DNA of 64,000 nucleotides from Felis catus (lineage: Eukaryota). Where the stretch lies: positions 11,842,001 through 11,906,000 of the forward strand of contig NC_058369.1 in the NCBI RefSeq assembly GCF_018350175.1, read 5' to 3'. Under the pieces are notes generated by a model. That model was not told the DNA's origin and did no database searches. It worked only from the letters and a program-made list of their open reading frames with translations. Numbering within the stretch: position 1 is the first letter of the stretch; every line of letters begins with the position of its first letter. The translations under genes and the position numbers were made by a program. Shown here piece after piece: positions 1,551-61,480 of the stretch.

Positions 1551-1720
1551 AAAAGCTGCAAAGGTCACTAGGCTGAGTGAGGAACCCAGGACCCAGCAGG
1601 GGCAACCCGAGAAAAGTCCCACCAGCTCCCAAGGCTAAGAGCCTGTCTTACCACCTTTCTCCCCAGTCCTGTTCCCACCCCCAACCGGGGCTTGCTCCCC
1701 ACAACTGCCTAAATATTGCC

Positions 1721-2240
1721 ACCTACCCTGTCCCTGCTGGTCCCTCTCGTGCTAGGCTGCCTCTTCCAGGAAGCAGCCAGCAGGGGAGGACAGAAGACGC
1801 TCTCTTGGGTTATTCTGTCAGCAGCACACAGGGGCAGGTGTGGGGCCAGACCTCTGGGCTCCTGGAACTGATGTGTGTGCTTTATCCCTGCTGCAGCTTC
1901 CCAGCAGGCTGATCCCCAGGGCCTCCTCAGGGTCTGGAGTGGCCAAGAGGATCATCAGAGGATCTCTGGGGATGTGCAGCCCCTACTCCTTCCTCCAACT
2001 CCCCAACACAACCAAGACTCCCTGCTGTCTCTGTCTGCCCTGAGAGCCCCAGTCCCTGCTGAGGACTAGGAGCTCCCAGTCTTGGGGGAAACAGGGCTCG
2101 AGTAGATGCCCTCAGTCCCTTAGGGTCAAGGAAGAGTCAGAGGGAAGGCAGGAGCTGGTGCAGCCCACAGTGGGAATCCAGAGCTCTGCTCTGGGGTCAG
2201 GGCAGCTGGAGGGTTTCCCAGAATAAGGGTAATTTAGAGC
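1721..2240 (-). promoter_or_regulatory. Putative OR10H promoter + non-coding exon 1 (copy 1; target gene predicted left of the window)
   Basis: TAAT site 2230-2235, O/E-like TCCCCAGGG ~1913, GATAAA 1886-1881, donor AGG|GTAGGT at 1726-1721; function inferred from the position of paralogous copies. Confidence 0.55.
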
Positions 2241-2384
2241 TGGGTCTTGGGGACTGATTTCCTTTGGTCAATAGAAGTTTTCAGTGTCTCCTGGTCACAC
2301 TGGATAGCCCCACCTCCCCCCACTGGTCAAGTTCTACCCTATCCCTGTTGTCCTGGTGATCCAAGCCAGAACATCTCCATTAGT

Positions 2385-3110
2385 ATGTGCATCCTTGGCC
2401 TATAATAACACATTTGGTCTTTGTCCACTTCATGACACACAGCTCCTAAAGCCCTTGTCTCAGGAGTGATGATACTGGATTTTGCATGCTAAGGAGATGC
2501 GTGGTGGTTGGGGGCTCCTGGATAGTCTAGGAAGGAGGCTGCTCCCCTGATCGGCCAAGGCGAGATCAGAGAGCTGGGACTTCCAGGTGGGGAGAGGGGC
2601 TATGGGTTGATATTCAATCTCCAAGGACCAATGATTTAATCAATCATGTCTGTGTAATCAAACCTCCACAAAAACTCCCTAAGCAATGGGAATCAGAGAC
2701 CTTCCCATTTGTCAACACGTGGAGGTGCTAGGAGGGTGGTGTGTCCGGAGAGGGCATGGAAGGTCCTCGGTCCTTCCTCCACACCTTGCTTGATGCACTT
2801 GTTTCACCTGGCTGTTCCTGACTCGTGTCTTTTATAGTAAACTGGGAAGAGTAAGTGTTGCATTTTCCTGATTTCTGTGAGTCATTCCAGCAAAGTATCC
2901 AAAATGAAAGGGGGGAATTTAGAAACCCCAACTGTGAAGTCCCATCACACAAAAGTGCAGGTACCCTGAATACTGAAAACTTGTCACTGGCATCTCCAGG
3001 TAGTTCGTGTCAGAAGTGAACTGAATTATGGGACTGCAAGTTGGTGTCTGGGAAGCTGAAGAATTGTTCATTGTTGTGGGAAGAACTCACCCATTCGGTC
3101 TTAAGTGTTA
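2385..3110 (+). mobile_element. MER21-like solo LTR
   Basis: ccaatgatttaatcaatcatg and gtggaggtgctaggagggtgg...ggagagggcatggaag are typical of MER21. Confidence 0.75.
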
Positions 3111-7434: not shown

Positions 7435-8385
7435 TCAGGAGCTTAGGGGACTGAATTTTCTCTGGAAGCTTTTCTTTATGGCGTTCTTGAGCTCCTTATT
7501 CCTGAGGCTGAAAATGATCGGGCTGAGAAAGGGAGTGAAGACTGTATAGGTGGTGGCCATCAGGGTGTTACTGTCCATAGAATGGGGGCCCTTGGGCTTG
7601 AGGTAGATAATGGAAGCAAAGCTGTAGTGCACAATGACCACCGTGAGGTGGGACACACACGTGGAGAAGGTCTTGTGCCTGCCCTCAGCAGAGGGGATCC
7701 GCAATATGGCGGCCACGATGAAGACATAGGAGAGGACAATGAGGAATAAACAGCCCATCAGAGCTGAGACACACACCAGGATCACACCCAAGGTGACAGA
7801 GGAATTCTCATTCCCACAGGCCAATTTCAAAAGGGAAAACACATGGCATAGAAAATGGTGGATCACATTAGACCCACAGAAGGTGAGGTGAAAAACTATC
7901 AGGGTCACCATCATCCCCATGACTGAGCCACCAGCCCAGGTCCAGGACACCAGACGGGCACAGCTACGGTTGCTCATGAGCACATTGTAGCGCAGGGGGT
8001 GGCAGATGGCCACATAGCGGTCGTAGCCCATGATCATAAGCAGGAAGGAGTGGGTGAAGCCAAACGTGAAGGAGAAAAACATCTGGCTGGCACAGGCCGC
8101 CCAGGTGATGGTGCGGCGGGTGGAGAGCATGTCAACCAGCATGCGAGGGGTGACGGCAACGGTGAACAGAATCTCGGAGGTGGACAGGGCGCACAGGAAG
8201 AGGTACATGGGCGTGTGCAGGCTGCGCTCGCTCCAGACTGTGGTCATGATGAGCAGGTTCCCCAGCAGCGTGAACAGGTACATGAGCAGGTACAGCAGGA
8301 AGAAGGTGGGCAGGAGATGCTGTGGGAAGTTAGAGAATCCCACGAGGATGAACTCAGTCACCATGCTATAGTTCTGACCAGGCAT
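7435..8385 (-). CDS. OR10H4-like: Olfactory receptor, class II, OR10H3/OR10H4-like, 316 aa, intact (gene A)
   Basis: ORF with MPGQNYS (N-glycosylation site), LHTPMYLFL, MGYDRYVAICHPLRY, KTFSTCVSHL and PIIFSLRNKELK. Start set at ATG 8385; the longer ORF-track start (8457) lies upstream of a splice acceptor (AG at 8398-8397). Confidence 0.95.
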   Translation of the reverse strand: MPGQNYSMVTEFILVGFSNFPQHLLPTFFLLYLLMYLFTLLGNLLIMTTVWSERSLHTPMYLFLCALSTSEILFTVAVTPRMLVDMLSTRRTITWAACASQMFFSFTFGFTHSFLLMIMGYDRYVAICHPLRYNVLMSNRSCARLVSWTWAGGSVMGMMVTLIVFHLTFCGSNVIHHFLCHVFSLLKLACGNENSSVTLGVILVCVSALMGCLFLIVLSYVFIVAAILRIPSAEGRHKTFSTCVSHLTVVIVHYSFASIIYLKPKGPHSMDSNTLMATTYTVFTPFLSPIIFSLRNKELKNAIKKSFQRKFSPLSS

Positions 8386-8479
8386 GGGTGCTGCATCTGG
8401 TGAGATCAGAAGAGGAATGAAGGTGACCATCATGACAATCATGAGTGTATACAACAATATATGAAATGGGGAGACTATA

Positions 8480-9265
8480 GACGCAGTATGTTAGGATTGG
8501 GAAAGTGACCCGGATACTCACTGGTTCTGCTGTTCTTTAGCACGGAACTGAAAGTCATGAGCGGTGCTATAAATAAGAACAAGAAAGAAGGTATGTACGG
8601 ATGGGAAGGAAAGAGACATGCTCCTTCACCCAGAAAAAGTAAAGAATGAAAACATAAGGTACCACAGCAATAGAGAGCACAGTCTGCAGAAGACAAGATC
8701 GGCTCGCAACACTCAGTATTTCTCACAGAATTACTCCAGCAGTAATCATTCAAAGTATAAGCTTTAAGCAAAACTAAGATAACATTCCCAGCGGTGACAC
8801 AAACTGTAAAGACATGGCTCGCCAACATTGTGGTCTGGTGATTTCTTAACACTCAAGAAAATGTGAGACTCTGATGGGTTCCTGTTTGGGTGCAGTACAA
8901 CTCTCCGTTTTCACCATATTAGAAGTTAACACTGAGATTGTCTGAAAATATGTAGTATGGATACATTCAAAAGAATAGTCACCTGCTCAATGTCAATACA
9001 AGTAACATGTTTTTAGAAAGTAACTACATTTACAAAATTAACATTTGGTGAGAAGAGTTGCTGTTTTTTGTTTGTTTGTTTGCTTTTACATTTTAACAAA
9101 CTTGGATGGGAAACAAATTGATGCTCATACCTGCCTCTTCATTCAGCCTGTGGCAACATGTTGTTTTAGTTGAAGCATATGATGAAAAATGGAAAAGTAA
9201 GGAACTGATGTTCCCCCAGAAAGGGTCTCCAGGACCCCAGGGTCCTCATATCACACTTTGAAAAC
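8480..9265 (+). mobile_element. Charlie1-like hAT remnant (paralogs ~37270-38345, ~23460-24200 -, ~52150-52870)
   Basis: gtgagaagagt...ttcattcagcctgtggcaacatgttgttttagttgaagcatatg...ggtctccaggaccccaggg...cacactttgaaaac. Confidence 0.6.
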
Positions 9266-13990: not shown

Positions 13991-14269
13991 TGGGGGGTTA
14001 TCCCTGATGCTGCTATCTTCCCTGTCCTCTGAGCTGCTTTCCTGTCATCAGTCTGTACCAGATGCACCAGTTGGTCACATTCCAAACTCACAGCCTCTGT
14101 AGTGCCATTTGCACTAGGCTGAGTGAAGAGCCCAGGACCCAGCATGGGCACCCTGAGAAGCCCCCCTGGCAGTTGTCCAGAGCTAAGAATCTGTCTTACA
14201 ACCGTTCAACCAGGCCCGGTTCCCATCCACTGTCTGAGTCTTGTTCCCAATAAATGTCCCATTATTGCC

Positions 14270-14780
14270 ACCTACCCTGTCCCTTCTGGTCCCCCTCGTG
14301 CTGGGCTGCCTCTTCCAGGAAGCAGCCAGCAGGGCAGGGAAGAAGACACTCTCCTGTGTTATTCTGTCAGCAGCACACAGGGGCAGGTGTGGGGCCAGAC
14401 CTCTGGGCTCCTGGAACTGATGCTGTGTGCTTTATCCCTGCTGCAGCTTCCCAGCAGGCTGTTCCCCAGGGCCTCCTCAGGGTCTGGAGTGGCCAAGAGG
14501 ATCATCAGAGGATCTCGGGGGATGTGCAGCCCCTACTCCTTCCTCCAACTCCCCAACACAACTAAGACTCCCTGCTGTCTCTGTCTACCCTGAGAGCCCC
14601 AGTCCCTGCTGAGGACTAGGAGCTCCCAGTCTTGGGGGAAACAGGGCTCGAGTAGATACCTTAAGGTCAGAGCACGGTCAGAGGGAAGGCAGGAGCTGGT
14701 GCGGCCCACAGTGGGAATCCAGAGCTCTGCTCTGGGGTCAGGGCAGCTGGAGGGTGTCCCAGAATAAGGGTAATTTAGAG
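14270..14780 (-). promoter_or_regulatory. Putative promoter + non-coding exon 1 of gene A
   Basis: TAAT 14771, O/E-like ~14463, GATAAA 14436-14431, donor 14275-14270; co-oriented, 5.9 kb upstream of acceptor 8397. Confidence 0.6.
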
Positions 14781-14924
14781 CTGGGTCTTGGGGACTGATT
14801 TCCTTTGGTCAATAGAAGTTTTCAGTGTCTCCTGGTCACACTGGATAGCCCCACCTCCCCCCACTGGTCAAGTTCTACCCTATCCCTGTTGTCCTGGTGA
14901 TCTGAGCCAGAACATCTCCATTAG

Positions 14925-15650
14925 TATGTGCATCCTTGGGCTATAATAACACATTTGGTCTTTGTCCACTTCATGACACACAGCTCCTAAAGCCCTTGTC
15001 TCAGGAGTGATGATACTGGATTTTGCATGCTAAGGAGATGCGTGGTGGTTGGGGGCTCCTGGATAGTCTAGGAAGGAGGCTGCTCCCCTGAACGGCCAAG
15101 GTGAGATCAGAGAGCTGGGACTTCCAGGTGGGGAGAGGGGCTATGGGTTGATATTCAATCTCCAAGGACCAATGATTTAACCAATCATGTCTGTGTAATC
15201 AAACCTCCACAAAAACTCCCTAAGCAATGGGAATCAGAGACCTTCCCATTTGTGAGCATGTGGAGGTGCTAGGAGGGTGGTGTGTCCGGAGAGGGCATGG
15301 AAGGTCCTCGGTCCTTCCTCCACACCTTGCCTGATGCACCTGTTTCACCTGGCTGTTCCTGACTCGTGTCTTTTATAGTAAACTGGGAAGAGTAAGTGTT
15401 GCATTTTCCTGATTTCTGTGAGTCATTCCAGCAAAGTATCCAAAATGAAAGGGGGGAATTTAGAAACCCCAACTGTGAAGTCCCATCACACAAAAGTGCA
15501 GGTACCCTGAACACTGAAAACTTGTCACTGGCATCTCCAGGTAGTTCGTGTCAGAAGTGAACTGAATTATGGGACTGCAAGTTGGTGTCTGGGAAGCTGA
15601 AGAATTGTTCATTGTTGTGGGAAGAACTCACCCATTCGGTCTTAAGTGTT
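14925..15650 (+). mobile_element. MER21-like solo LTR (segmental duplicate)
   Basis: Near-identical to 2385-3110. Confidence 0.75.
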
Positions 15651-16892: not shown

Positions 16893-16926
16893 AATGAGGG
16901 CAAAGTGATGTGAGGACACAGAGCAG

Positions 16927-17527
16927 TCCTTTCTGTTCATGATCATGGGCTATGACTGCTACATGGTCATCTGCCACCACCTGCGCTACAATGTGCTCAT
17001 GAGCCCCCGTGGCTGTGCCCGCCTCGTGTCCTGGTCCTGGCCTGGTGGCTCGATCATGGGGATGATGGTGACCCTGATAGTTTTTCACCTCACCTTCTGT
17101 GGATCTAACATGATCCGCCATTTTTTCTGCCATGTGTTTTCCCTTCTAAAGTTGGCCTGTGGGAATGAGAATTCCTCCGTCACCTTGGCTGTGATCCTGG
17201 TGTGTGTCTCAGCTCTGATGGGCTGTTTATTCCTCATCGTCCTCTCCTATGTCTTCATCGTGGCCGCCATATTGAGGATCTACTCAGCTGAGACCTTCTA
17301 CATGTGTGTGTCACCTCACTATGGTCATTGTGCACTATGACTTTGCCTCCATTATTTACCTCAAGCCCAAGGGCCTCCATTCTATGGACAGTAACACCCT
17401 GAAGGCCACCACCTATATAGTCTTTACCTCCTTTCTTAGCCCAATAATTTTCAGCCTCAGGAATAAGGAGCTTAAGAATGCCATAAAGAAAAGCTTCCAG
17501 AGAAAATTCAGTCCCCTAAGCTCCTGA
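16927..17527 (+). pseudogene. 5'-truncated OR10H pseudogene (psi1), TM3 to C-terminus
   Basis: Begins at the SFLFMIMGYDCY equivalent. Has DRY>DCY, a 12-nt deletion of GRHK at ~17292 and a 2-nt frameshift at ~17311; ends KFSPLSS*. Confidence 0.92.
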
Positions 17528-18592: not shown

Positions 18593-20014
18593 AGGTAAAA
18601 CTCAAATAAATGAAAATATACATATCGTTGGGTGTTGGATACATGCTGGGTATTTGTTTTTCCCCAATTTTTTACACCCCTCTTGCATGGGATCTAGTGA
18701 TCATGATCTCTTGTTCTTGACCCCATGTGATGAACTCCTTCCCATTACTCTGCCTAAGAATGTGTTATCTTCTTATGGGCAGGTGGGGGGCATCACATGG
18801 ATATGTCTGGGCAGTGACGCACAAGGTCTTCTTGAATGTTCATGCAAGGGAAGATTTTCCCCTCCTCCAACATAAGGATAAAGAAAATTAAGCAGAGTAA
18901 TTATATATGACTCAGCATTTCATCCAGCACTTTACCAATGGTTTATACTACTGTCTTTTAAATTATAACAAATGCACAAAAGAAATTAAACTTTTAGTCT
19001 CTAAGAAGATGATTTACTATGTATAATTTCTCGCTGCCTTGGAAGGGATAGATTCTAAGGGAGGTTTTCTATGTCAAATTGGGTTCAGAAGGTGACCTGG
19101 AGAGAGAGAGAGACAGAAAGAGATACAGAGAGATAAGTAGTGGCATAGGAATCCTTTAAATTGATCTGAACAGACACTTGAATAAAATTGGATATGGGGC
19201 CAAATCTGGGAAAGGAATGAAGAATGAGAAGGAAGTTGGTAGGAGGGTAATTTTCACATGAGGAAGGGAAAGGGAAGGGAGAGTGAGAGAGGAAGAGAGG
19301 GGGAGAGGAATAGGGAGGAAAAGAGAGAGAAAGGGGAGGGGGATCAGTGCTTAGATAAGAACATAAGGCATGTTAAAAGGGTTTTGCTTTCTGACAGCTT
19401 ATTGAAAGTCTTTTCCCTTTTTCCCCACATTACTTTCCATAAGCATCAATTTCTCATTCCTGAGTTTGGAAGAATCTATTTGGGGGATTTGTTGTAGACA
19501 CAGTGCTATCTCAAGATGCACAAAGAGAGGTCAAGGGTATGGGTACCCCCTTTATGCAGATGAGAACAGTTGGTGGAGGTCACACAACGTGTGAAGGAAA
19601 GGGTCACATGGAGATTGAGGTCTGTCTGACTCCCATGCTGGGGATTGGGAAACCATAGGTCTGAGGATCCAGGAAGGGGGCTTTCTGTGGATCTAAACTA
19701 CTACTCAAAGGTGAGGCCAGATGTTTGAGTTGGAGGCAGAAGATGTGATATAATGTTAAACCCACAGCTACCAGTCACCTCGTGAGCATACAAGACTCTC
19801 CTCAGTGGTCAATAAACAAGGACAACACAGGAGACCAAATATTTGCTTGATTATATCACAGAGAGGCTTATGTTGATGTGGACTCTCAGGCTTGGATCAC
19901 CAGGATGACAAGGAAAGGGTAGAACTTGACCATGAGGTGAGGTGGGGTGATCCAGAGTGTCCAGGAGACAGTGAACAATTCTATTGACAAGGAGAAATCG
20001 CTCCCTATGACCCA

Positions 20015-20581
20015 GCTCTAAATTACCCTTATTGTGGGAAGCCCTCCAGCTGCCTTGACCCCAGCGCAGAGCCCTGGATTCCCACTGGATTCCCAGTGGA
20101 TTTCCACTCTGGGCTGCTCCAGCTCCTGCCTTCCTCCTGTCCCTGCCCTGACACTAAGGGATTGAGGGCATCTACTCCAGCCCTGTTTCCCCCAAGACTG
20201 GGAGCTCCTAGTCCTCAGTAGGGACTGGAGCTTAGGGCAGACAGAGACAGCAGGGAGTCTTGGTTGTGTTGGGGATTTGGAGGAAGGAGTAGAGGTTGCA
20301 GGTCCCCAGAGGCCCTCTGATGATCCTCTTGGCCTCTCCAGACCCTGAGGACAGCCTTCCAGATTGGTGTCCCAAGGAGGCCCTGGGGAGCAGCAGGATG
20401 GGAAGTTGCAACAGGGATAAAGCACACAGCATCAGTTCCAGGAGCCCAGAGGTCTGGCCCCACACCTGCCCCTGTGTGCTGCTGACAGAATAACCCAAGA
20501 GAGCGTCTTCTGTCTTCCCCTGCTGGCTGCTTCCTGGAAGAGGCAGCCCAGCACGAGGGGACCAGGAGGGACAGGGTAGGT
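20015..20581 (+). promoter_or_regulatory. Putative promoter + non-coding exon 1 of gene B
   Basis: AAATTA 20020-20025, O/E-like TCCCAAGGA/CCCTGGGGA 20370-20389, GATAAA 20416-20421, donor GTAGGT 20576-20581; 5.5 kb upstream of acceptor 26068. Confidence 0.6.
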
Positions 20582-22043
20582 GGCAATATTTAGGCAGTTG
20601 TGGGGAGCAAGCCCCGGTTGGGGGTGGGAACAGGACTGGGGAGAAAGGTGGTAAGACAGGCTCTTAGCCTTGGGAGCTGGTGGGACTTTTCTCGGGTAGC
20701 CCCTGCTGGGTCCTGGGTTCCTCACTCAGCCTAGTGACCTTTGCAGCTTCTAGGTCACTATTGTTGATTGGGACTGATTCTGTCCCCCTGAAATATTTGC
20801 ACATGCCCGGAGGCCCTTTTGTTGTCACAGCTCATGGGGAGGGAGGGATGCTACGGGCATCTGGAGGGCTGAGGCCAGGGATGCTGCTAAACGTTGTACA
20901 ATCTGGTAGTAGTGTGGGGCGTTTGTTCCACTGGTGAACCAATCAGGACACGTTATAGTAACTCCGCCCACATTTACACTAGGGCTCACTGTCTGTGTTG
21001 CAGCCTGTGGGTTTGGAGCAGTGGATAGTGGCATGTATACAGCATTCCAGCATCCCACAGAATAGTGTCAGGTGCTCTGTTTTTAATGCGCCCAAATGCA
21101 ATTATGCTGGAGAGTTGAGCTGCCTTTTGCCTCATTCACTCGGTGTCATTTTACGGCTTCATTTATGCTGCTGTGTGTGCATGGAACTCCTGGCTGGGGC
21201 TCCAGGGTTTGCATCTGGCCCGTGGGACCTGCCCCCTTCCCAGTTACGGTTCCCAGGCAGGCTTGTCCATTCCGGCACTACAAGCGGGGCTTCATCCCAC
21301 AGGCTCCATCCAGGTAGGTGTGCGCCATCGAGATAGAGGTTCAGGTGCACGTGAAGGTTGCACTTCTCCATTCTCGGTTCTCACCCGCAGGCCGCGGGAT
21401 TGCTCCCTCCCCGTATAGCTGTGGGCATTGGGCACTTCCTAATCTGGGGAAATGAATAGGTGTACAGGGAAATCTCAGGGTCGTTTTCCCCTTCCCTTTC
21501 CTTGTCTTGAAACCATCTGTTCACTTGCCTGTGTAACCCCTTCTGTGGGTTCTCTGCTCATGTCCTGGACTCGTTTCTGTATGGAGTCTCTACTTCTTAA
21601 TGTGCTGGTTTCTTATTTACTCTAGTCAGTATTCCCTGGTCAATTTTAGTCAATGCACCGGCTCCTTTCCCAAATTTCCATCTGCCTGTTCATGTATCCT
21701 GGATATTCCAGGGTGTCCTGGAAGTTTTCATGTGTGTTTCTTTCTCTAAGCAGTTAAATGAATTTAATGAAATGGCGTCAGCACTCACAGAACATATGCT
21801 TCTGAAATTCAAATGCTGCTTTACCGATTAAGCATACCATAGACACATTTCATGTCTTTTTAAAATCACCTCAACATCTGTGCTTTTGATGTTTGGTTAG
21901 ACTCCTCCTTCACTTATAGATCACAAAGTCATTCTCCTGAATCCTTTTCCTACTGACTTTATACTTCATTCTACATGTGAAATCCATTTGGATTCCACCT
22001 TTGTGTGGAATCTCAGGCAGGAATTCAGATTTATACTGCTTCC

Positions 22044-25446: not shown

Positions 25447-26079
25447 CATGATTATTACGGGTATAATTCTACAGGAAATACTGAATTTGGGAAGTTGACC
25501 TCATCTTCTGCATCTTGTTCTAATATAGTTGTCTTCATTCCTTTACCTTTCTAGGTAGATGATCGCGTCTATTCCCTTCCAATCCTGACATTCCTTCTTT
25601 ACTTTTTCTCAAGCATCACCGCCAGCTTCACTTCCCATCTAATGAACAGCAGAGGCAGTGAGTAGCCTTGGCTTCTTCCTGATGCTAAAATAATACATCT
25701 ATTTCTCCCACTTCGTGTACTATTTGCTAGTTTTGTGCTGTATATTCCCAGTAAGCTAAGAAAGTCCCCGTTGACTTCATGTTGAGAAGAAGCTTTTAAA
25801 AAGATTTTTAAGGTATATACATCTATTACCATTATGCTGTATATCTAAAATGGTGCAATACTTTATGACAATTATGTATTAATTTTTAAACCATAAATAG
25901 TAATGGAACTTTAGCAATCCAGGATTGCAGCTTGAATTCATATAATTATATGATATTTATTTTAGTTTATTCCTGTGACTGATCACATGATAGGTTTTCT
26001 GATGCTGAATCAACCTTGTTATTCATGGGATAAATTACTAACCTTCATTCCCTTTCTGATCTCACCAGATGCAGCACCC

Positions 26080-27030
26080 ATGGCTGGTCAGAACTATAGC
26101 ATGATGACTGAGTTCATCCTCGTGGGCTTCTCCACCTTCCCACAGCATCTCCTGCCCGCCTTCTTCCTGCTGTACCTGCTCATGTACCTGTTCACGTTGC
26201 TGGGGAACCTGCTCATCATGACCACAGTCTGGAGCGAGCGCAGCCTGCACACGCCCATGTACCTCTTCCTGTGCGCCCTGTCCACCTCCGAGATTCTGTT
26301 CACCGTTGCTGTCACCCCTCGCATGCTGGTTGACATGCTCTTCACCCACCGCACCATCACCTGGGCGGCCTGTGCCAGCCAGATGTTTTTCTCCTTCACG
26401 TTTGGCTTCACACACTCCTTCCTGCTCATGATCATGGGCTACGACCGCTACGTGGCCATCTGCCACCCCCTGCGCTACCATGTGCTCATGAGCAACCATG
26501 GCTGTGCCTGCCTTGTGTCCTGGACCTGGGCTGGTGGCTCAGTCATGGGGATGATGGTGACCCTGATAGTTTTTCACCTCACCTTCTGTGGATCTAACAT
26601 GATCCGCCATTTTTTCTGCCATGTGTTTTCCCTTCTAAAGTTGGCCTGTGGGAATGAGAATTCCTCCGTCACCTTGGCTGTGATCCTGGTGTGTGTCTCA
26701 GCTCTGATGGGCTGTTTATTCCTCATCGTCCTCTCCTATGTCTTCATCGTGGCCGCCATATTGCGGATCCCCTCTGCTGAAGGCAGGCACAAGACTTTCT
26801 CCACATGTGTGTCCCACCTCACTGTGGTCATTGTGCACTACGGCTTTGCCTCCATTATCTACCTCAAGCCCAAGGGCCCCCATTCTATGGACAGTAACAC
26901 CCTGATGGCCACCACCTATACAGTCTTCACTCCCTTTCTCAGTCCGATCATTTTCAGTCTCAGGAATAAGGAGCTCAAGAATGCTATAAAGAAAAGCATC
27001 CAGAGAAAACTCATTCCTCTAAGCTCCTGA
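26080..27030 (+). CDS. OR10H4-like: Olfactory receptor OR10H3/OR10H4-like, 316 aa, intact (gene B)
   Basis: MAGQNYS...RKLIPLSS* with all OR motifs; 951 bp; acceptor ttcattccctttctgatctcaccag ends at 26068. Confidence 0.95.
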   Translation: MAGQNYSMMTEFILVGFSTFPQHLLPAFFLLYLLMYLFTLLGNLLIMTTVWSERSLHTPMYLFLCALSTSEILFTVAVTPRMLVDMLFTHRTITWAACASQMFFSFTFGFTHSFLLMIMGYDRYVAICHPLRYHVLMSNHGCACLVSWTWAGGSVMGMMVTLIVFHLTFCGSNMIRHFFCHVFSLLKLACGNENSSVTLAVILVCVSALMGCLFLIVLSYVFIVAAILRIPSAEGRHKTFSTCVSHLTVVIVHYGFASIIYLKPKGPHSMDSNTLMATTYTVFTPFLSPIIFSLRNKELKNAIKKSIQRKLIPLSS

Positions 27031-33495: not shown

Positions 33496-33939
33496 AGCTC
33501 AAGTATTAAATAATGTGACAGAATTAAGTCTTAAAACACCAGTAATTAAAATTATAATGCAGGGGCCCCAATACACAGGAGGGTGAGCATCCCTCCTGAG
33601 TCACACGGTCCACGTCGAGCATGGAGACCGTTCCTACTGTCCTCCAGCTCCTGCTCCGATAGTGTCGGTTGAGGGCACACCGCACCCCAGGCCCTGTGCT
33701 GGGGCCCCTGCAGCTACACGGTCAGGTGAGTCCTCAAAACACACCCCAATGAGCAAACCCTGCAGCTGGGCTACCGGGACTCCTTCACCTTTGTTGACCG
33801 AATTCCAAGGACACTCAGCACTTCTCGAGAGCCATCTCAACGCCCCAGGTCTTCTCCACAAAGAAGAATGACCTAAGAATCTGGCTTGAAACTAATTGTA
33901 AAGTGAAACCCAATAACATTTAACGTCAGGATGCCATTT

Positions 33940-34375
33940 CATGAGTCAGTTCCTGGGGCCGCTGTATCAAAGCATATAAATCTCGTGCCCTGACTCCACA
34001 CACATCTATCCTCTTCTATGCTGGAGGCCAGAAGCCGAATCAGGGTCACCAGGTGTGAGTCCAGGTGTGAGCAGGGCTGCGTCCTTCGGGGGATCCGGGG
34101 AGGGATGTGTCTCCTGCTTTCCCAGCTTCGAGGGCACCACGCATCCCCTGGCTCATGGTTCCTGCCTCAGCTACTCCAATTCCTCCTTCCGGTGTCACAT
34201 CCCCTACTGCTCCCTGTCTCTGGCCCCTCCTGCCCCCTTGTATAAGGACACTTGCAATTATAGCAGCCCATCTGGGTGATGAGGGCAATCCCCCTGTCTC
34301 AGATCTTAACTGCATCTCATCTGCACACTCTCTCTTGCTGGGTAAGGGAACGCAGCCACAAGCTCTGGAGAAGCA
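33940..34375. mobile_element. MLT1-type MaLR solo LTR (duplicate ~49365-49800; deleted remnant ~28595-28715)
   Basis: gctgtatcaaagcat...ctggaggccagaag...gcagggctg...tataaggacacttg...tctcagatcttaact. Confidence 0.75.
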
Positions 34376-35175
34376 CATCTTAGGAATGGTGGGGGCATCA
34401 GTCAGTAACACCAATAATGAGCAAAATAATGAATGGAACCCCAAAACTGCCATAGCCAGTTTTGCCAAGCTCTCGTTGTCAGTGTTCATGAGACAAAGTG
34501 TCTCATGAACTCCTCTGGAGTCCGTGTTTCCCTCTGGCTGTGTGAAAGGGGTGTGTGCCTAGGGCTGCACCTGCCCTCCTTCCCTGAAAGGGGTCTCTTC
34601 CTTCTAATGACAGCCTTCTCCTCCCAGTCATGACCTCACTTCTCTCTGTAGACACCTGAGAGAGGGGGGCTCCTGGTCACCAATTGCACACACATGCACA
34701 TTGTATTCGATTCCTGCTCCCTGCCTTCATGGCACTGTGGCCTGGGACAAATTATCTATCACATTTGCATTTTCCACATTTCAAAAATGTTATTAGTTAT
34801 ATGTGTGGGTCATATCTAAATGTGGAGAAAGGATAATTTATTTTGAGGCTTAGAAGAGTGAATGCATAGGAAACCCTTCCCACAGCATTTGGCAAACAAC
34901 AGGTCCTCATATGTGACAGACATCCTTAGGTTTATTATTGTAAAACATCTTCTGACTGCAACTCAAATATCTGACCACAATTTAACTAAGAATTTACACC
35001 AATGGAAGCCCCCCCCCTCCCCCAGATGCTCAGACATATGGTTTCCCAACCCCAGCATTGGAGTCAGACAGACCTAAAGTTGCATGTGACCCCTTCCTTC
35101 AAGTGTTGTGTGCCTTCTACCAACAATTCTTTTCTGCATAAAGGGGTACCTACACCCTTGAGCTCTCTTTGTTCT

Positions 35176-36230: not shown

Positions 36231-37181
36231 TCAGGAGCTTAAAGGACTGAATTTTCTCTGGAAGCTTTTCTTTATGGCGTTCTTGAGCTCCTTATTCCTG
36301 AGACTGAAAATGATCGGGCTGAGAAAGGGGGTGAAGACTGTATAGGTGGTGGCCATCAGGGTGTTACTGTCCATAGAATGGGGGCCCTTGGGCTTGAGGT
36401 AGATAATGGAGGCAAAGCCGTAGTGCACAATGACCACTGTGAGGTGGGACACACACGTGGAGAAGGTCTTGTGCCTGCCCTCAGCAGAGGGGATCCGCAA
36501 TATGGCAGCCACAATGAAGACATAGGAGAGGACGATGAGGAATAAACAGCCCATCAGAGCTGAGACACACACCAGGATCACACCCAAGGTGACAGAGGAA
36601 TTCTCATTCCCACAGGCCAACTTTAGAAGGGAAAGCACGTGGCAGACAAAATGGTGGATCACATTAGACCCACAGAAGGTGAGGTGAAAAACTATCAGGG
36701 TCAACATCATTCCCATGACTGAGCCACCGGCCCAGGACAAGGACACAAAGCGGGCACAGCCACGGGGGCTCATGAGCACATTGTAGCGCAGGGGGTGGCA
36801 GATGGCCACGTAGCGGTCATAGCCCATGATCATGAGCAGGAAGGAGTGTGTGAAGCCAAACGTGAAGGAGAAAAACATCTGGCTGGCACAGGCCGTCCAG
36901 GTGATGGTGCGGTGGGTGGAGAGCATGTCAACCAGCATGCGAGGGGTGACAGCAACGGTGAACAGAATCTCGGAGGTGGACAGGGCGCACAGGAAGAGGT
37001 ACATGGGCGTGTGCAGGCTGCGTTCGCTCCAGACTGTGGTCATGATGAGCAGGTTCCCCAGCAGCGTGAACAGGTACATGAGCAGGTACAGCAAGAAGAA
37101 GGTGGGCAGAAGATGCCTTGGGAAGTTAGAGAATCCCACAAGGATGAACTCAGTCACCATGCTATAGTTCTGACCAGCCAT
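36231..37181 (-). CDS. OR10H4-like: Olfactory receptor OR10H3/OR10H4-like, 316 aa, intact (gene C)
   Basis: MAGQNYS...RKFSPLSS*; 951 bp; all OR motifs; same acceptor 11 nt upstream of the ATG. Confidence 0.95.
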   Translation of the reverse strand: MAGQNYSMVTEFILVGFSNFPRHLLPTFFLLYLLMYLFTLLGNLLIMTTVWSERSLHTPMYLFLCALSTSEILFTVAVTPRMLVDMLSTHRTITWTACASQMFFSFTFGFTHSFLLMIMGYDRYVAICHPLRYNVLMSPRGCARFVSLSWAGGSVMGMMLTLIVFHLTFCGSNVIHHFVCHVLSLLKLACGNENSSVTLGVILVCVSALMGCLFLIVLSYVFIVAAILRIPSAEGRHKTFSTCVSHLTVVIVHYGFASIIYLKPKGPHSMDSNTLMATTYTVFTPFLSPIIFSLRNKELKNAIKKSFQRKFSPLSS

Positions 37182-37766
37182 GGGTGCTACATCTGGTGAG
37201 ATCAGAAGGGGAATGAAGGTGATCAGCATGACAATCATGAGTCTATACAACAATATATGAAATGGGGAGACTACAGACGCAGTATGTTAGGATTGGGAAA
37301 GTGACCCGGATACTCACTGGTTCTGCTGTTCTTTAGCATGGAACTGAAAGTCATGAGCGGTGCTATAAATAAGAACAAGAAAGAAGGTATGTACAGATGG
37401 GAAGGAAAGAGACATGATCTTTCACCCAGAAAAAGTAAAGAATGAAGACATAAGTTACCACAGCAATAGAGAGCACAGTCTGCAGAAGACAAGATCGGCT
37501 CGCGACACTCAGTATTTCTCACAGAATTACTCCAGCAGTAATCATTCAAAGTATAAGCTTTAAGCAAAACTAAGATAACATTCCCAGTGGTGACACAAAC
37601 TGTAAAGACACGGCTCGCCAACATTGTGGTCTGGTGATTTCTTAACACTCAAGAAAATGTGAGACTCTGATGGGTTCCTGTTTGGGTGCAGTACAACTCT
37701 CCGTTTTCACCATATTAGAAGTTAACACTGAGAGTGTCTGAAAATATGTAGTATGGATACATTCAT

Positions 37767-40844: not shown

Positions 40845-41066
40845 AAGGTTTCTGAACTTCAGTACGTGTGGGATTTGGGACCAGGATCATTCTCTGGGGT
40901 GGTGGCTCTCCTGTGCATTATATAACATTTAACAGGATCTCTGGTCTCAACCCATCAGATGTCAGTAGCATCCCCACCAATCATGAGTCACAACAATAAA
41001 AAAATGTCTCCAGACATGCCCACATGTCTCCTGTGGGGCCCAACTACCCTGGGCTGAGGACCACTG
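40845..41066 (+). mobile_element. MER20 hAT-Charlie element
   Basis: caaggtttctgaac...aaaatgtctccagacat...gaggaccactg. Confidence 0.75.
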
Positions 41067-41230
41067 GCCTAGAAGCTTCTAGGGCCCTGGGCTGGGTAAG
41101 AACCCAGGACCCATAACAGCACCTGAGAAGACCACAGGCAAGGGTAAGAGCCTGTCTTATGACCCGTCTACCAGGCCCTGCTCCCATACCCTGTCTGGGT
41201 CTTGCTCCCGACAACTGTTTGAACATTGCC

Positions 41231-41775
41231 ACCTACCCTGTCCCTCCTGGACCCCCTTGTGCTGGGCTGCCTCTTCCAGGAAGTAGCCAGCAGGGCAGGG
41301 AAGAAGATGCTCTCCTGTGTTGTTATTCTATCAGCAGCACACAGGGGCAGGTGTGGGGCCAGACCTCTGGGCTCCTGGAACTGATGCTGTGTGCTTTATC
41401 CCTGCTGCAGCTTCCCAGCACGCTGCTCCCTAGAGCATCCCTGGAACACCAATCTGGAGTGCTGTCCTCAGGGTCTGGAGAGGTCAGAAGGATCATCAGA
41501 GGGCCTCTGGGACCTGCAGCCTCTACTCCTTCCTCCAACTCTCCAACACAACTCCCTGCTGTCTCTGTCTGCCCAGAGAGTCCCAGTCCCTGCTGAGGAC
41601 TAGGAGCTCCCAGTCTTGGGGGAGACAGGACTGGAGTAAATGCCTTCATCCCCTTAGGGTCGGGGCAGAGTCAGAGGGGAGGAAGTAGCTGGAGCAGCCC
41701 AGAATGGGAATCCAGGGCTCTGCCCTGGGGTCAAGGCAGCTGGAGGGCTTCCCACAATAAGGGTAATTTAGAGCT
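41231..41775 (-). promoter_or_regulatory. Putative promoter + non-coding exon 1 of gene C
   Basis: TAAT 41764, degenerate O/E-like sites ~41427-41448, GATAAA 41400-41395, donor 41236-41231; 4 kb upstream of the CDS. Confidence 0.6.
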
Positions 41776-42410
41776 GGGTCATAGGGAGCGATTTTTCCTT
41801 GTCAGTAGAAATGTTCACTGTCTCCTGGACACACTGGATTGCCCCACTTCGCCTCATGGTCAAGTTCGACCCTATCCCTGTCGTCCTGGTGATCTGAGCC
41901 TGAGGGTCCACATCAAAATAAGCCTCTCTATGATATAACCAAGCAAATATTTGGTCTCCTGTGTTGTCCTTGTTTATTGACCACCGAGGAGAGTCTTGTA
42001 TGCTCACGAGGTGACTGGTAGCTGTGGGTTTAACATTATATCACATCTTCTGCCTCCAACTCAAACATCTGGCCTCACCTTTGAGTAGTAGTTTAGATCC
42101 ACAGAAAGCCCCCTTCCTGGATCCTCAGACCTATGGTTTCCCAATCCCCAGCATGGGAGTCAGACAGACCTCAATCTCCATGTGACCCTTTCCTTCACAC
42201 GTTGTGTGACCTCCACCAACTGTTCTCATCTGCATAAAGGGGGTACCCATACCCTTGACCTCTCTTTGTGCATCTTGAGATAGCACTGTGCCTACAACAA
42301 ATCCCCAAATAGATTTCTTCCAGACTCAGGAATGAGAAATTGATGCTTATGGAAAGTAATGTGGGGAAAAAGGGAAAAGACTTTCCATAACCTGTCAGAA
42401 AGCAACACCC

Positions 42411-42972
42411 TTTTTTTTTTTTGCTAGTGGTTATCATTTATTTGTGGCTTTTCAGCTAACAGCACAGAAATGTACATATGCAAACTAACCTGTTATATAA
42501 AGACATATCTGTGATTATGTTCTTTTTTTTATGAAATTTATTGTCAAATTGGTTTCCATACAACACCCAGTGCTCATCCCAACAGGTGCCCTCCTCAATG
42601 CCCCTCACCCACCCTCCTCTCCCTCCCACCTTCCCATCGACCCTCAGTTCATTCTCAGTTTTTTAGTCTCTTATGATTTGGCTCCCTCCCTCTCTAACTT
42701 TTTTTTCCCTTCTCCTCCCCCATGGTCTTCTGTTAAGTTTCTCAGGATCCACATAAGAGTGAAAACATATGGAATCTGTCCTTCTCTGTATGACTTATTT
42801 CACGTAGCATAACACTCTCCAGTTCCATCTATGTTGCTACAAAATGCCATATTTCATTCTTTCTCATTGCCACGTAGTATTCCATTGTGTATATAAACTA
42901 CAATTTCTTTATCCATTCATCAGTTGATGGACATTTAGGCTCTTTCCATAATTTAGCTATTGTTGAGAGTGC
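42411..42972 (-). mobile_element. 5'-truncated felid L1 with 100-bp 3' transduction
   Basis: TSD aaagcaacaccctttt at 42399 and 42973; two polyA tracts flank unique sequence 42423-42522. Confidence 0.88.
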
Positions 42973-43299
42973 AAAGCAACACCCTTTTAACATGCTTTAT
43001 GTTCTTATCCAAGCACTGATCCCCCTCCCCTGTCTCTCTCTCTTTCCCTCCCTATTCCTCTCCCCTTCTCCTTCTCTCTCACTCTCCCTTCCCTTTCCCT
43101 TCCTCATGTGAAAATTGTGCTGTTACCAACTTCCTTCTCATTTTCATGCCTTTTCCAGATTTTGCCCCATATGCACTTTCATCCAACTTCTTGTTCAGAT
43201 CATTTTCAGGACTCCTATCCCACTACTTATCTTTCTTTCTCTCTCTCTTCCGGTGTCTCTCCCTTCCCCTCTCTGCTTCACCCTCTGAACCCTATTTTT

Positions 43300-43328
43300 T
43301 TAAATTTTTTTTAAGTTTTATTTTTCAT

Positions 43329-43367
<39 letters not shown>

Positions 43368-47372: not shown

Positions 47373-47442
47373 AGGAATGCTCTTTGTTCTCACAATACTT
47401 TGTCTTCATTTAGCATGTGTATAGTCAAGAAATGTTCTTCCA

Positions 47443-50574: not shown

Positions 50575-51525
50575 TCAGGAGCTTAAGGGACTGAATTTTC
50601 TCTGGAAGCTTTTCTTTATGGCATTCTTGAGCTCCTTATTCCTGAGGCTGAAAATGATCGGACTGAGAAAGGGGGTGAAGACTATATAGGTGGTAGCCAT
50701 CAGGGTGTTACTGTCCATAGAATGGGGGCCCTTGGGCTTGAGGTAGATAATGGAGGCAAAGCCATAGTGCACAATGACCACAGTGAGGTGGGACACACAC
50801 GTGGAGAAAGTCTTGTGCCTGCCTTCAGCAGAAGGGATCCGCAATATGGCGGCCACGATGAAGACATAGGAGAGGACGATGAGGAATAAGCAGCCCATCA
50901 GAGCTGAGACACACACCAGGATCACACCCAAGGTGACAGAGGATGTCTCCTTCCCACAGGCCAACTTTAGAAGGGAAAGCACGTGGCAGGCAAAATGGTG
51001 GATCACATTAGACCCACAGAAGGTGAGGTGAAAAACTATCAGGGTCACCATCATCCCCATGATCGAGCCACCAGCCCAGGACCAGGACACGAGGCAGGCA
51101 CAGCCACGGGGGCTCATGAGCACATTGTAGCGCAGGGGGTGGCAGATGGCCACGTAGCGGTCGTAGCCCATGATCATGAGCAGGAAGGAGTGTGTGAAGC
51201 CAAACGTGAAGGAGAAAAACATCTGGCTGGCACAGGCCGCCCAGGTGATGGTGCGGTGGGTGGAGAGCATGTCAACCAGCATGCGAGGGGTGATGGCAAC
51301 GGTGAACAGAATCTCGGAGGTGGACAAGGCGCACAGGAAGAGGTACATGGGCGTGTGCAGGCTGCGCTCGCTCCAGACTGTGGTCATGATGAGCAGGTTC
51401 CCCAGCAGCGTGAACAGGTACATGAGCAGGTACAGCAGGAAGAAAGCGGGCAGGAGATGCCGTGGGAAGTTAGAGAATCCCACGAGGATGAACTCAGTCA
51501 CCATGCTATAGTTCTGACCAGGCAC
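50575..51525 (-). CDS. OR10H4-like: Olfactory receptor OR10H3/OR10H4-like (gene D); open frame but codon 1 is GTG; first in-frame ATG at 51504 gives 309 aa
   Basis: Full 7TM frame without stops; minus strand reads cagtactcGTGcctggtcag where paralogs read cagcacccATGcct/gct. Confidence 0.85.
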   Translation of the reverse strand: MPGQNYSMVTEFILVGFSNFPRHLLPAFFLLYLLMYLFTLLGNLLIMTTVWSERSLHTPMYLFLCALSTSEILFTVAITPRMLVDMLSTHRTITWAACASQMFFSFTFGFTHSFLLMIMGYDRYVAICHPLRYNVLMSPRGCACLVSWSWAGGSIMGMMVTLIVFHLTFCGSNVIHHFACHVLSLLKLACGKETSSVTLGVILVCVSALMGCLFLIVLSYVFIVAAILRIPSAEGRHKTFSTCVSHLTVVIVHYGFASIIYLKPKGPHSMDSNTLMATTYIVFTPFLSPIIFSLRNKELKNAIKKSFQRKFSPLSS

Positions 51526-51914
51526 GAGTACTGCATCTGGTGAGATCAGAAAGGGAATGAGGGTGTGTAATTTATCCCATGAATGACAAGGATGATTCAG
51601 AATAAACCTATCATATAGTTAGTTGCATGAATAAGTTAAAAAGGAAATGTCATATAATTATATCAATCTAGAAAGCTATCCTGGATTGCTAAAGTTCAAT
51701 TCCTATATGGTTTTTAAAATTGATTTATAACTGACATACATTATATTATTTTAATACACAGCATAATGATGATATGTTTATATATCTTGAAGATTTTTTT
51801 TAAAGCTTTGTCAACATCAAATCAACTGAGACTTTCTTAGTTAACTAAGAATACATGCCACAAACTAGGAAATAGTACAAGAAGTGGGAGACAGATAGAT
51901 GCATTATTTTATAA

Positions 51915-52140: not shown

Positions 52141-52507
52141 TAAATAGACTATTTTAAAATCAGAAACAAGCCAAGGTTACTCACTGTCTCGGCTGTTCAT
52201 TAGCAGGGGACTGAAAGCCAGGAGAGGTGCTTGAGGATTGTTAAAGAAAGAAGGAATACCAGGATTGGAAGCAAAGAGACGTGATCATCTACCTAGAAAG
52301 GTGCAAGAACGAAGGCAGAAAATCTTTGAGCAAAGACAGAACACATGCTGTGGAAGACAGATCAACTTCCCAAACTCATAGCATCTCCCATAGAATTGCA
52401 CTCATAGTAATCATGTGAAAGAATTCAAGGAAAAAGCAAGGTAACATTCCCAATAGTGACACAAACTATAAGGAGACAGTTGTCAAACATGTTGGTTGCA
52501 GTATTTC

Positions 52508-55129: not shown

Positions 55130-56067
55130 TGAACAGATAGTTTCAAGACAAGGAAAGGGAAGGGGAAAACGACCCTGAGATTTCCCTGTACACCTATTCA
55201 TTTCCCCAGATTAGGAAGTGCCCGGTGCCCACAGCTATACGGGGAGGGATCAATCCCGCGGCCTGCGGGTGAGAACCGAGAATGGAGAAGTGCAACCTTC
55301 ACGTGCACCTGAACCTCTATCTCCATGGCGCACACCTACCTGGACGGACCCTGTGGGATGAAGCCCCGCTTGTAGTGCGGGAACGGACAAGCCTGCTTGG
55401 GAACCGTAACTGGGAAGGGGGCAGGTCCCACGGGCCAGATGCAAACCCTGGAGCCCCAGCCAGGAGTTCCATGCACACACAGCAGCATAAATGAAGCCGT
55501 AAAATGACACCGAGTGAATGAGGCAAAAGGCAGCTCAACTCTCCAGCATAATTGCATTTGGGCGTATTAAAAACAGAGCACCTGACACTATTCTGTGGGA
55601 TGCTGGAACGCTGTATACATGCCACTATCCACTGCTCCAAACCCACAGGCTGCAACACAGTGAGCCCTAGTGTAAATGTGGGTGGAGTTACTATAACGTG
55701 TCCTGATTGGTTCACCAGTGGAACAAATGCCCCACACTACTACCAGATTGTACAACGTTTAGCAGCATCCCTGGCCTCAGCCCTCCAGATCCCGGTAGCA
55801 TCCCTCCCTCCCCATGAGCTGTGACAACAAAAGGGCCTCCGGGCATGTGCAAGTATTTCAGGGGGACAGGATCAGTCCCAATCAACAATAGTGACCTAGA
55901 AGCTGCAAAGGTCACTAGGCTGAGTGAGGAACCCAGGACCCAGCAGGGGCAACCCGAGAAAAGTCCCACCAGCTCCCAAGGCTAAGAGCCTGTCTTACCA
56001 CCTTTCTCCCCAGTCCTGTTCCCACCCCCAACCGGGGCTTGCTCCCCACAACTGCCTAAATATTGCC

Positions 56068-56636
56068 ACCTACCCTGTCCCTCCTGGTCCCCTCGTGCTG
56101 GGCTGCCTCTTCCAGGAAGTAGCCAGCAGGGGAAGACAGAAGATGCTCTCTTGGGTTATTCTGTCAGCAGCACACAGGGGCAGGTGTGGGGCCAGACCTC
56201 TGGGCTCCTGGAACTGATGCTGTGTGCTTTATCCCTGTTGCAACTTCCCATCCTGCTGCTCCCCAGGGCCTCCCTGGGACACCAATCTGGAAGGCTGTCC
56301 TCAGGGTCTGGAGAGGCCAAGAGGATCATCAGAGGGCCTCTGGGGACCTGCAACCTCTACTCCTTCCTCCAACTCCCCAACACAACCAAGACTCCCTGCT
56401 GTCTCTGGTGCCCAGAGAGCCCCAGTCCCTACTGAGGACTAGGAGCTCCCAGTCTTGGGGGAAACAGGGCTGGAGTAGATGCCCTCAATCCCTTAGGGTC
56501 AGGGCAGGGACAGGAGGAAGGCAGGAGCTGGAGCAGCCCAGAGTGGAAATCCACTGGGAATCCAGTGGGAATCCAGGGCTCTGCCCTGGGGTCAAGGCAG
56601 CTGGAGGGCTTCCCACAATAAGGGTAATTTAGAGCT
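56068..56636 (-). promoter_or_regulatory. Putative promoter + non-coding exon 1 of gene D
   Basis: TAAT 56625, tandem O/E-like TCCCCAGGG and TCCCTGGGA 56260-56279, GATAAA 56233-56228, donor 56073-56068; 4.5 kb upstream of the CDS. Confidence 0.6.
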
Positions 56637-57500
56637 GGGTCATAGGGAGCGATTTCTCCTTGTCAATAGAAATGTTCACTGTCTCCTGGACACACTGGAT
56701 TGCCCCACTTCGCCTCATGGTCAAGTTCGACCCTATCCCTGTCGTCCTGGTGATCTGAGCCTGAGGGTCCACATCAACATAAGCCTTTCTGTGATACAAT
56801 CAAGCAAATATTTGGTCTCCTATGTTGTCCATGTTCATTGACCACCGAGGAGAGTCTTGTATGCTCACGAGGTGACTGGTAGCTGTGGGTTTAACATTAT
56901 ATCACATCTTCTGCCTCCAACTCAAACATCTGGCCTCACCTTTGAGTAGTAGTTTAGATCCACAGAAAGCCCCCTTCCTGGATCCTCAGACCTATGGTTT
57001 CCCAATCCCCAGCATGGGAGTCAGACAGACCTCAATCTCCATGTGACCCTTTCCTTCACACGTTGTGTGACCTCCACCAACTGTTCTCATCTGCATAAAG
57101 GGGGTACCCATACCCTTTACCTCTCTTTGTGCATCTTGAGATAGCACTGTGCCTGCAACAAATCCCCCAAATAGATTCTTCCAAACTCAGGAATGAGAAA
57201 TTGATGCTTATGGAAAGTAATGTGGGGAAAAAGGGAAAAGACTTTCCATAAGCTGTCAGAAAGCAAAACCCTTTTAACATGCCTTATGTTCTTATCTAAG
57301 CACTGATCCCCCTCCCCTTTCTCTCTCTTTTCCTCCCTATTCCTCTCCCCCTCTCTTCCTCTCTCACTCTCCCTTCCCTTTCCCTTCCTCTTATGAAAAG
57401 TGCCTGTTACCAACCTCCTTCTCATTCTTTATACCTTTCCCAGATTTTGCCCTGTATGCACTTTATCCAACTTCCTGTTCAGATCCCACTAATCTGTCTG

Positions 57501-60418: not shown

Positions 60419-60559
60419 CTAATGGAGATGTTCTGGCTTGGATCACCAGGACAACAGGGATAGGGTAGAACTTGACCAGTGGGGGGAGGTGGGGCTATCC
60501 AGTGTGACCAGGAGACACTGAAAACTTCTATTGACCAAAGGAAATCAGTCCCCAAGACC

Positions 60560-61305
60560 CAGCTCTAACTTACCCTTATTCTGGGACACCCTCCAGCTGC
60601 CCTGACCCCAGAGCAGAGCTCTGGATTCCCACTGTGGGCCGCACCAGCTCCTGCCTTCCCTCTGACCCTTCTCTGACCTTAAGGTATCTACTCGAGCCCT
60701 GTTTCCCCCAAGACTGGGAGCTCCTAGTCCTCAGCAGGGACTGGGGCTTTCAGGGCAGACAGAGACAGCAGGGAGTCTTGGTTGTGTTGGGGAGTCCAGG
60801 ATGCCCACGTGTACTTCTGCCCATCTCTTTCTGTGTCTGCCCACCCCGCCAGCCCTCAGCAGCCTGCTTCCCTCACAGCAGCCAGAGGGGCTCCCTACAA
60901 ACAGGAATCTGACCATGTTTCTTGGGCTTAAGACGTGCCTGTTGGTATAATCACTTTGGAAAACATTTGGCAGAATCTATTCAAGATGAACATAGGTACT
61001 CCCTATGATTTGGCATTTACACTGCTAAATAGAGGCTAAATAGAGGAGTAGAGGCTGCAAGTCCCCAGAGGCCCTCTGATGATTCTCTTGGCCGCTCCAG
61101 ACCCTGAGGGCAGCCCTTCCCAGTTGGCATCCTGGGGAGCCCTGGGGAGCAGCGTGCTGGGAAGCTACAGCAGGGATAAAGCACAGAGAATCAGTTCCAG
61201 GAGCCCAGAAGTCTGGCCCCACACCTGCCCTTGTGTGCTGCTGATAGAATAAGCAGCCCTGCTGGCTGCTTCCTGGAAGAGGGAGACAGGAGGGACAGGG
61301 TAGGT
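60560..61305 (+). promoter_or_regulatory. Putative OR10H promoter + exon 1 (copy 6, rearranged; target gene predicted right of the window)
   Basis: Two CCTGGGGAG sites 61131-61150, GATAAA 61175-61180, donor 61300-61305; homeodomain site mutated (AACTTA 60567); interrupted by an inverted insert at 60793-61025. Confidence 0.5.
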
Positions 61306-61480
61306 GGCAATAGTGGGACACTTGTTGGGAGCAAGGTCCAGACAAGGGATGGGGACAGGTCCTGGGAGAAGGGTGGTAAGACAGGCTCTTACCCTTGGAC
61401 AGCTGCTGAAAGTCTTCTCAGGTACCTGTTATGGGTCCTGGGTTATTTACCCAGCCTAGTGCCTTTTGTAGCTTCTAGGT

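Follow-up and report, generated by a model that had tools for sequence, protein, structure and literature searches.

A six-copy module upstream of the cat OR10H3/4-like genes as a probable promoter and non-coding first exon

The 64,000-nt stretch of Felis catus DNA analysed here (the window) contains four intact olfactory receptor (OR) genes, flanked by five CYP4F genes and further ORs. A first-pass annotation of the window reported a GC-rich module in front of each intact receptor and proposed it as their hidden promoter and non-coding first exon. Is it indeed that, or rather an internal exon, a passenger of gene duplication, or a promoter for expression outside the nose? We compared the window together with 200 kb on each side (464 kb). 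A correct-frame search of this region found six OR10H3/4-type genes, one left of the window (A), four inside (B-E), and one right of it (F), as well as three genes of the OR10H1/2/5 type. The protein cluster members matching the window's receptors, from cats and other carnivores, are named olfactory receptor 10H3-like or 10H4-like. The six genes share 93-96% of their coding sequence (CDS), and their introns form two lineages that are 67-81% alike. Five near-identical CYP4F genes stand in tandem, ~26-29 kb apart, left of the cluster.

We consider it fairly probable that the module is an OR10H3/4-like promoter plus non-coding first exon, followed by a conserved middle exon. We favor this reading because of the position of the module at all six genes, its non-repeat core, the identity break after its donor, the lack of a strong acceptor inside it, and a CDS acceptor matched in human genes. 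Such a layout is ordinary smell-receptor anatomy, and the understanding of OR regulation is left unchanged. If right, the reading would supply 5' gene models that can be tested for a carnivore OR expansion whose genes are usually annotated with a single exon, would make an apparently N-terminally broken gene (A) intact once the middle exon is counted, and would add an OR promoter rich in GC to the subfamily that includes the classic M4 transgene.

Copies of the module and the genes they accompany

All six copies reported earlier lie at the places and on the strands given for them. The reported length of ~550 bp falls short, as the common unit measures ~850 bp (19886-20736). The copies, the coding exons, and the pseudogene remains are as follows:

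1562..2370, - strand: module copy 1; gene A lies just left of the window
14112..14911, - strand: module copy 2, upstream of gene B
19886..20736, + strand: module copy 3 (the shared unit), upstream of OR gene C
41065..41909, - strand: module copy 4, upstream of gene D; without the -34 O/E-like site
55909..56770, - strand: module copy 5, upstream of gene E
60432..61461, + strand: module copy 6, chimeric, with gene F just beyond the right edge of the window
7435..8396, - strand: CDS exon of gene B
26069..27030, + strand: CDS exon of gene C, OR10H3/H4-like; acceptor at 26069, ATG at 26080
36231..37192, - strand: CDS exon of gene D
50575..51536, - strand: CDS exon of gene E
16921..17524, + strand: 5'-truncated OR pseudogene fragment, with relatives at 46564-47379 and 58198-58317 on the - strand

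Each intact OR10H3/4-type gene has one copy upstream in the same orientation, as had been noted for the four in the window, and the pairing extends to six of six once genes A and F are included. At all six, the module precedes an intact same-strand CDS with a compatible donor and acceptor, 3767-5879 nt apart. None of the three OR10H1/2/5-type genes of the 464-kb region is accompanied by a copy.

A genome-wide DNA search with the module matched the six cluster loci only, and the core (20240-20736) has no dispersed copies outside the cluster, unlike a transposable element. As a control, the same search recovered dispersed repeats of 70-78% identity in the module flanks, i.e., 1028 candidates for the old repeat upstream of copy 1, 10 dispersed matches in block 20922-21285, and a further 34 where copy 6 ends on the right. 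The genome holds 11 other matches to the 16-letter GATAAA pattern, none of them with module homology and none at an OR. Metagenome scans found no OR relative (15 pattern matches, the best at 6 bits, none accepted as a homologue), and an Rfam search with the module gave a single chance match (E 0.92). Our literature search found no paper on the cat module and none on cat olfactory transcripts; supplementary data for mouse Olfr63 may be relevant to exon 1, and the accessible portion of the PMC3247230 supplements contained no match.

The module had also been called non-transposon, which holds for the core and probably fails for its 5' third:

20005..20235, + strand: 5' third of the module, probably what is left of an old L2 3' end; limits approximate

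A two-part motif from 20195-20225 has 19 matches outside the cluster, against none for its reversed control, and many flanks of these dispersed matches end in what we take to be the L2 3' terminus. Profiles built from the dispersed copies only, using rounds 1-2 alone because later rounds drifted, align over ~200 nt of the 5' part of the module. With the anchor fixed, the real sequence scored above 193-200 of 200 shuffles for each of the six copies and with two profiles; without the anchor the result was not significant. The stretch resembles an L2 LINE 3' end in its 28-31 nt motif and ~200 nt of colinear upstream match to a family dispersed in the cat genome, and differs in that the match is weak (7-15 bits), lacks the terminal tail, and covers the 5' third of the module only. 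A homeodomain-like TAATTT motif at 20016-20028, lost in copy 6, is probably part of this remnant. We rejected a CYP4F-derived promoter, since the match of the module profile (E 5e-5) is weak, lies antisense in a CYP4F intron, and involves the 5' part, all of which fits the old-repeat reading.

The idea that the module is a 3' element of the OR upstream of it was rejected as well, because copies 1, 2, and 6 have an unrelated upstream flank. Relic OR 3' flanks, 72-80% identical to those of intact genes, lie directly 5' of copies 3, 4, and 5 (18631-19762, 42027-44140, and 56888-58199) and are traces of an older tandem array. At ~2577-2930, 15120-15470, and 59870-60225 there is an old dispersed repeat of 330 bp (70% identity, >1000 candidates).

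That none of the pseudogenes carries a module had been offered as further evidence. The absence is real, yet it says little, because the pseudogenes share a single 5'-truncated origin. Their fragments begin at about residue 111-114 and have a common upstream flank that is 74-83% identical, which points to one truncation that was then copied rather than three independent losses. The pseudogene at 46564-47379 is a composite: after an old part with 56% protein identity comes a recent stretch, 91% identical, of residues 82-286.

Promoter-like signals and base composition

Within copy 3, the signals that define the proposed promoter and exon are:

20381..20388, + strand: O/E-like CCCTGGGG, in five of six copies, ~65 nt before the predicted start
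20416..20421, + strand: GATAAA, TATA-like; the start would lie at ~20445
20445..20575, + strand: putative non-coding exon 1, without ATG, ending at donor CAGG/GTAGGT

Most of the conservation described in the first pass is borne out. All six copies keep CAGGGATAAAGCACA and the donor CAGG/GTAGGTGGC, five keep GGGTAATTTAGAG, and the acceptor CTGATCTCACCAG precedes all four intact CDSs of the window as well as those of the two genes just outside it. The distance from GATAAA to the donor is 160-164 nt, and 125 nt in copy 6. Two details need correction. The acceptor 11 nt before codon 1 is present throughout, but in gene E that codon is GTG, not ATG; and the CCC-N2-GGG motif said to precede GATAAA in all six copies is found, as the -34 site, in five.

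Under the preferred reading, EBF (O/E) would bind ~65 nt upstream of the start, and GATAAA would act as a weak TATA box from which transcription begins at ~20445. The candidate binding site, CCCTGGGG, occupies a fixed spot 34 nt 5' of GATAAA in five of six copies, judged by what we take to be the O/E (EBF) consensus. Its occurrence is at chance level (shuffle P = 0.59), as is that of the one TAATT found in five of six copies, ~420 nt from the predicted start (P = 0.10), and of the one GATAA per 560 nt (P = 0.15); over 1000 dinucleotide shuffles of copy 3, no motif was enriched (P 0.10-0.59).

Mouse promoters provide the closest comparison. In the accessible part of PMC3247239, 78% of mouse OR promoters have a conserved O/E site within 200 bp and 39% have a TATA match at -60..-10, data that contest the earlier statement that OR promoters are usually TATA-less. 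The module resembles mouse class II OR promoters, as far as these are described in the available text of Young et al. 2011 (PMC3247239) and of PMC12547500, in its O/E-like site at <200 bp, its TATA-like box at -60..-10, its low repeat content, the raised conservation at the start, and its recent duplication with the gene. It differs in that its homeodomain-like site lies ~420 nt off the predicted start, in the probable L2 remnant, and in its GC content of 59%, compared with 36.4% for the 4 kb around mouse OR starts; it is not AT-rich. By its sequence, the module would work like known OR promoters, yet outside the AT-rich class.

The GC content had been described as unusual. This is true when set against OR promoters (36.4%) but not against the surroundings, where the module is not exceptional: the window has 46% GC, the 464-kb region 49%, and the surrounding 1-kb bins 44-57%, and 16% of all 560-bp bins in the region reach at least 58%. 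Nor is the module a CpG island, as its CpG observed/expected ratio is 0.06 (an island requires >0.6).

From the GATAAA motif and the base composition it had further been proposed that the promoter permits non-olfactory expression. In its strongest form, this would make the module a GATA-driven promoter active outside the nose, which we regard as very improbable. GATAAA is indeed kept in six of six copies and GC stands at 59%, but a single GATAA in 560 nt gives P = 0.15 by shuffle, and the CpG depletion and the 16% of regional bins with such GC levels count against it. Human expression speaks against it too. In the accessible part of table S7 of PMC4982115, OR10H4 is above floor in two of four olfactory samples and at floor in all 17 other tissues, and OR10H3 is above floor in two of four olfactory samples and in one of 17 other tissues. 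The human counterparts are thus almost nose-only, and the proposal finds no support. A set of 14 RNA or RNA-guessed contig runs with 0.21-0.88 of the words of 20300-20600 was set aside, as it may represent DNA carry-over.

A further parallel is the mouse receptor Olfr63, which in the available text is M4 (MOR267-1) and for which a 6.7-kb upstream region was enough to drive expression in an olfactory zone (Qasba and Reed 1998, as cited in PMC12547500). M4 belongs to the same receptor subfamily, and the matches include a rodent protein called 'olfactory receptor 63-like'. The 6.7-kb span of M4 would cover the module equivalent.

The putative middle exon and the start codons

In the human curated models for OR10H3, OR10H5, and OR10H1 (the accessible GTF rows of PMC7055050), an RNA-supported acceptor lies 11 nt before the ATG, which confirms the cat acceptor at -11. 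Human OR10H4 has three exons in the same rows, namely a partial one of 80 nt, a 1203-nt intron, a second exon of 114 nt with 22 coding nt, and a further 3367 nt to the CDS; it is listed as a split OR in the accessible part of Barnes et al. 2020 (PMC7055050). A homologue of human OR10H4 exon 2 occurs in six of six cat genes, with a length of 103-108 nt and an intact GTGAGT donor, 123-704 nt 5' of the CDS acceptor:

8522..8629, - strand: middle exon of gene B; the AG of its upstream acceptor is lost, and a second acceptor precedes the donor by 45 nt
25555..25657, + strand: middle exon of gene C, with in-frame ATG and donor GTGAGT
37318..37425, - strand: middle exon of gene D, homologous to exon 2 of human OR10H4
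52185..52292, - strand: middle exon of gene E, with an ATG that would bring back the N-terminus and its NYS sequon; the canonical start is GTG

The upstream acceptor of the middle exon is kept in A, C, and E. In B, D, and F it reads CTGG, and these genes have a pyrimidine-rich TAG 45 nt 5' of the middle-exon donor. Exon 1, ending at 20575, would accordingly be spliced to a middle exon of 103-108 nt (or 45 nt), which then joins the acceptor 11 nt before the CDS; skipping of the middle exon would give an alternative isoform. The junctions predicted earlier (20575>26069 and its equivalents) hold for their acceptor, as used in human OR10H3, OR10H5, and OR10H1, and omit the conserved middle exon.

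In silico splicing through the middle exon yields an in-frame ATG and 325-332 aa in six of six genes, i.e., a full-length frame across two exons as in the split ORs of Barnes 2020. The ATG of the middle exon also precedes the out-of-frame ATG that opens the CDS exon. With a direct junction the out-of-frame ATG comes first, gene E would start from residue 8 without the NYS sequon, and gene A would encode 282 aa with a start 34 residues late. Three primate proteins of 305 aa start with MLKNSR, and this peptide maps to the middle exon in all six cat genes. MLKNSR-type N-termini are also found in canid, camel, yak, lemur, and monkey records, which may be predictions, and several of the non-human proteins may be projections of the human model; the position of the ATG shifts among the cat copies. 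A leopard-cat record, which may likewise be a prediction, begins with MNSRDNAAPVPGQNYS, i.e., the same join. Of these junctions, the human one alone is marked as RNA-supported. It is likely that each gene has a small, overlooked middle exon that supplies its start codon.

A fuller scenario can be put forward only tentatively. The six genes would be split receptors whose middle-exon start has turned over by compensation, the MLKNSR ATG having been lost in A, C, and E with AAG->ATG two codons on, and B using an ATG five codons up. The middle exon would rescue gene A, whose CDS exon offers no usable ATG, and bypass the out-of-frame ATG at the acceptor, all under a GC-rich promoter with an L2-derived homeodomain site. 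We rejected the idea that the human exon-2 ATG derives from an ACG in the module exon, because the primate isoform begins with MLKNSR. The CDS exon itself (26069-26104 and paralogues) opens with an out-of-frame ATG that starts an 11-12 codon uORF overlapping the main start (ATG-TAG in D), and a second YAG 6 nt downstream is kept in six of six genes.

The agreement with the human genes is incomplete. As far as the accessible models of PMC7055050 go, human OR10H4 and OR10H3 share the 5' exons 3-5 kb upstream and the CYP4F neighbourhood, and OR10H4 the 114-nt exon whose donor follows an in-frame ATG by 22 nt. On the other hand, the human split isoform is spliced 55 nt into the ORF, intron 2 measures 3.3 kb in human versus 123-704 nt in cat, and intron 1 is 1.2 kb versus 3.0-5.6 kb. 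In detail, the distance between cat donor and middle exon is 2955-5646 nt, or 1882-4395 nt with locally repeated DNA masked. Homology between human exon 1 and the module is unproven, as no more than 1.2 kb separates exons 1 and 2 in human; sequence may have been lost in human, or human exon 1 may be something other than the module.

The human spacing of 1203 nt lends some weight to a different view, in which the module's exon, with its end at 20575, serves as an internal or minor exon of the 5'UTR and the main promoter lies further upstream or in the intron. We hold this to be rather unlikely. Candidates for such a promoter are an intronic site ~1.2 kb before the middle exon and an upstream segment of A, B, and F with a donor GG/GTGAGT ~1360 nt before the module donor:

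2979..3071, - strand: upstream segment (also at 15520-15612 and 59731-59823), similar to the exon that encodes the N-terminus in two canid gene models

The strong-looking GG/GTGAGT is found just 5' of this segment. Both canid models (P0012 and P0015) map here and take their first 31 residues from the segment, which in A, B, and F precedes the module donor by ~1250 nt; they skip both exons. A conserved YAG at -87 (CTGACAG/CTGATAG, six of six) and, in A, C, and E, the CCAAT/GC-box block and its strong +738 donor can be cited for the same view. Yet the segment is missing from C, D, and E, its canid-equivalent donor is weak in cat (GTTTTC), the +738 donor is not found in B, D, and F, and the intron blocks are only 67-81% identical between lineages. 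Other canid models draw on still other upstream pieces, which suggests prediction noise. Lastly, the 330 nt 5' of the module donor contain no strong acceptor, the best acceptor-like site being only 0.72 pyrimidine, and a first exon is therefore favored over an internal one. Two features of this neighbourhood are recorded for completeness. The block just mentioned (20922-21313), common to the six genes and 75-81% identical between lineages, has motifs resembling CCAAT and GC boxes, and a dispersed repeat matches the 100 nt in its middle. In A, B, and F, the old 330-bp repeat sits directly between the canid-matched segment and the module.

Identity profile and probable gene conversion

Identity among the copies is highest at the GATAAA core and drops 10 nt beyond the donor. 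From -175 to -88 relative to the donor, 80/88 to 88/88 positions are identical in all 15 pairs, and the ten positions from +1 to +10 are identical in all 15 as well; at +11..+185 of the intron, identity is 67-79% in the 12 pairs outside A/C/E. The core and exon are more alike than the intron in seven of seven pairs tested (p below 5e-4), and the core exceeds the 115 nt upstream at p<0.05 in only four of these seven. A matching break occurs ~29 nt 5' of the CDS acceptor. Two unrelated upstream flanks (A/B/F and C/D/E) both retain the same 640-690 nt 5' of the donor.

As these breaks fall at splice signals, the profile suggests selection, with gene conversion keeping the constrained parts alike. 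The module would have been duplicated with each gene, promoter core and CDS being held together by selection plus gene conversion while the introns diverged. Such conversion would make the copies non-independent. Copy 1 is a mosaic (left part of A/B/F type, right part of C/E type), and copy 6 is interrupted by an inverted 235-240 nt copy (60793-61027) of upstream DNA. The notion of a natural mutagenesis series, put forward in the first pass, is confounded by this homogenisation, the copies being conversion mosaics and not independent mutants.

The same mosaics, the chance-level motifs, and the probable old repeat in the 5' third could mean that the module has no function at all and is a passenger of whole-gene tandem duplication, homogenised by gene conversion, which alone can produce such an identity profile. 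We judge this unlikely. In three or more intron lineages the break comes precisely at donor +10, and likewise ~29 nt before the CDS acceptor, and a neutral tract has no reason to stop there; furthermore, the unit survives every rearrangement.

The insert at 60793-61027 in copy 6 is an inverted copy (88-94%) of 59361-59596, ~1.2-1.4 kb upstream. It sits where the A/B-type left half meets the divergent right half of the copy and looks like a template-switch breakpoint. Elsewhere in the window, a 1.1-kb duplicate of 93% identity lies 3' of genes D and E (33560-34619 and 48985-50066), with a related piece 3' of C.
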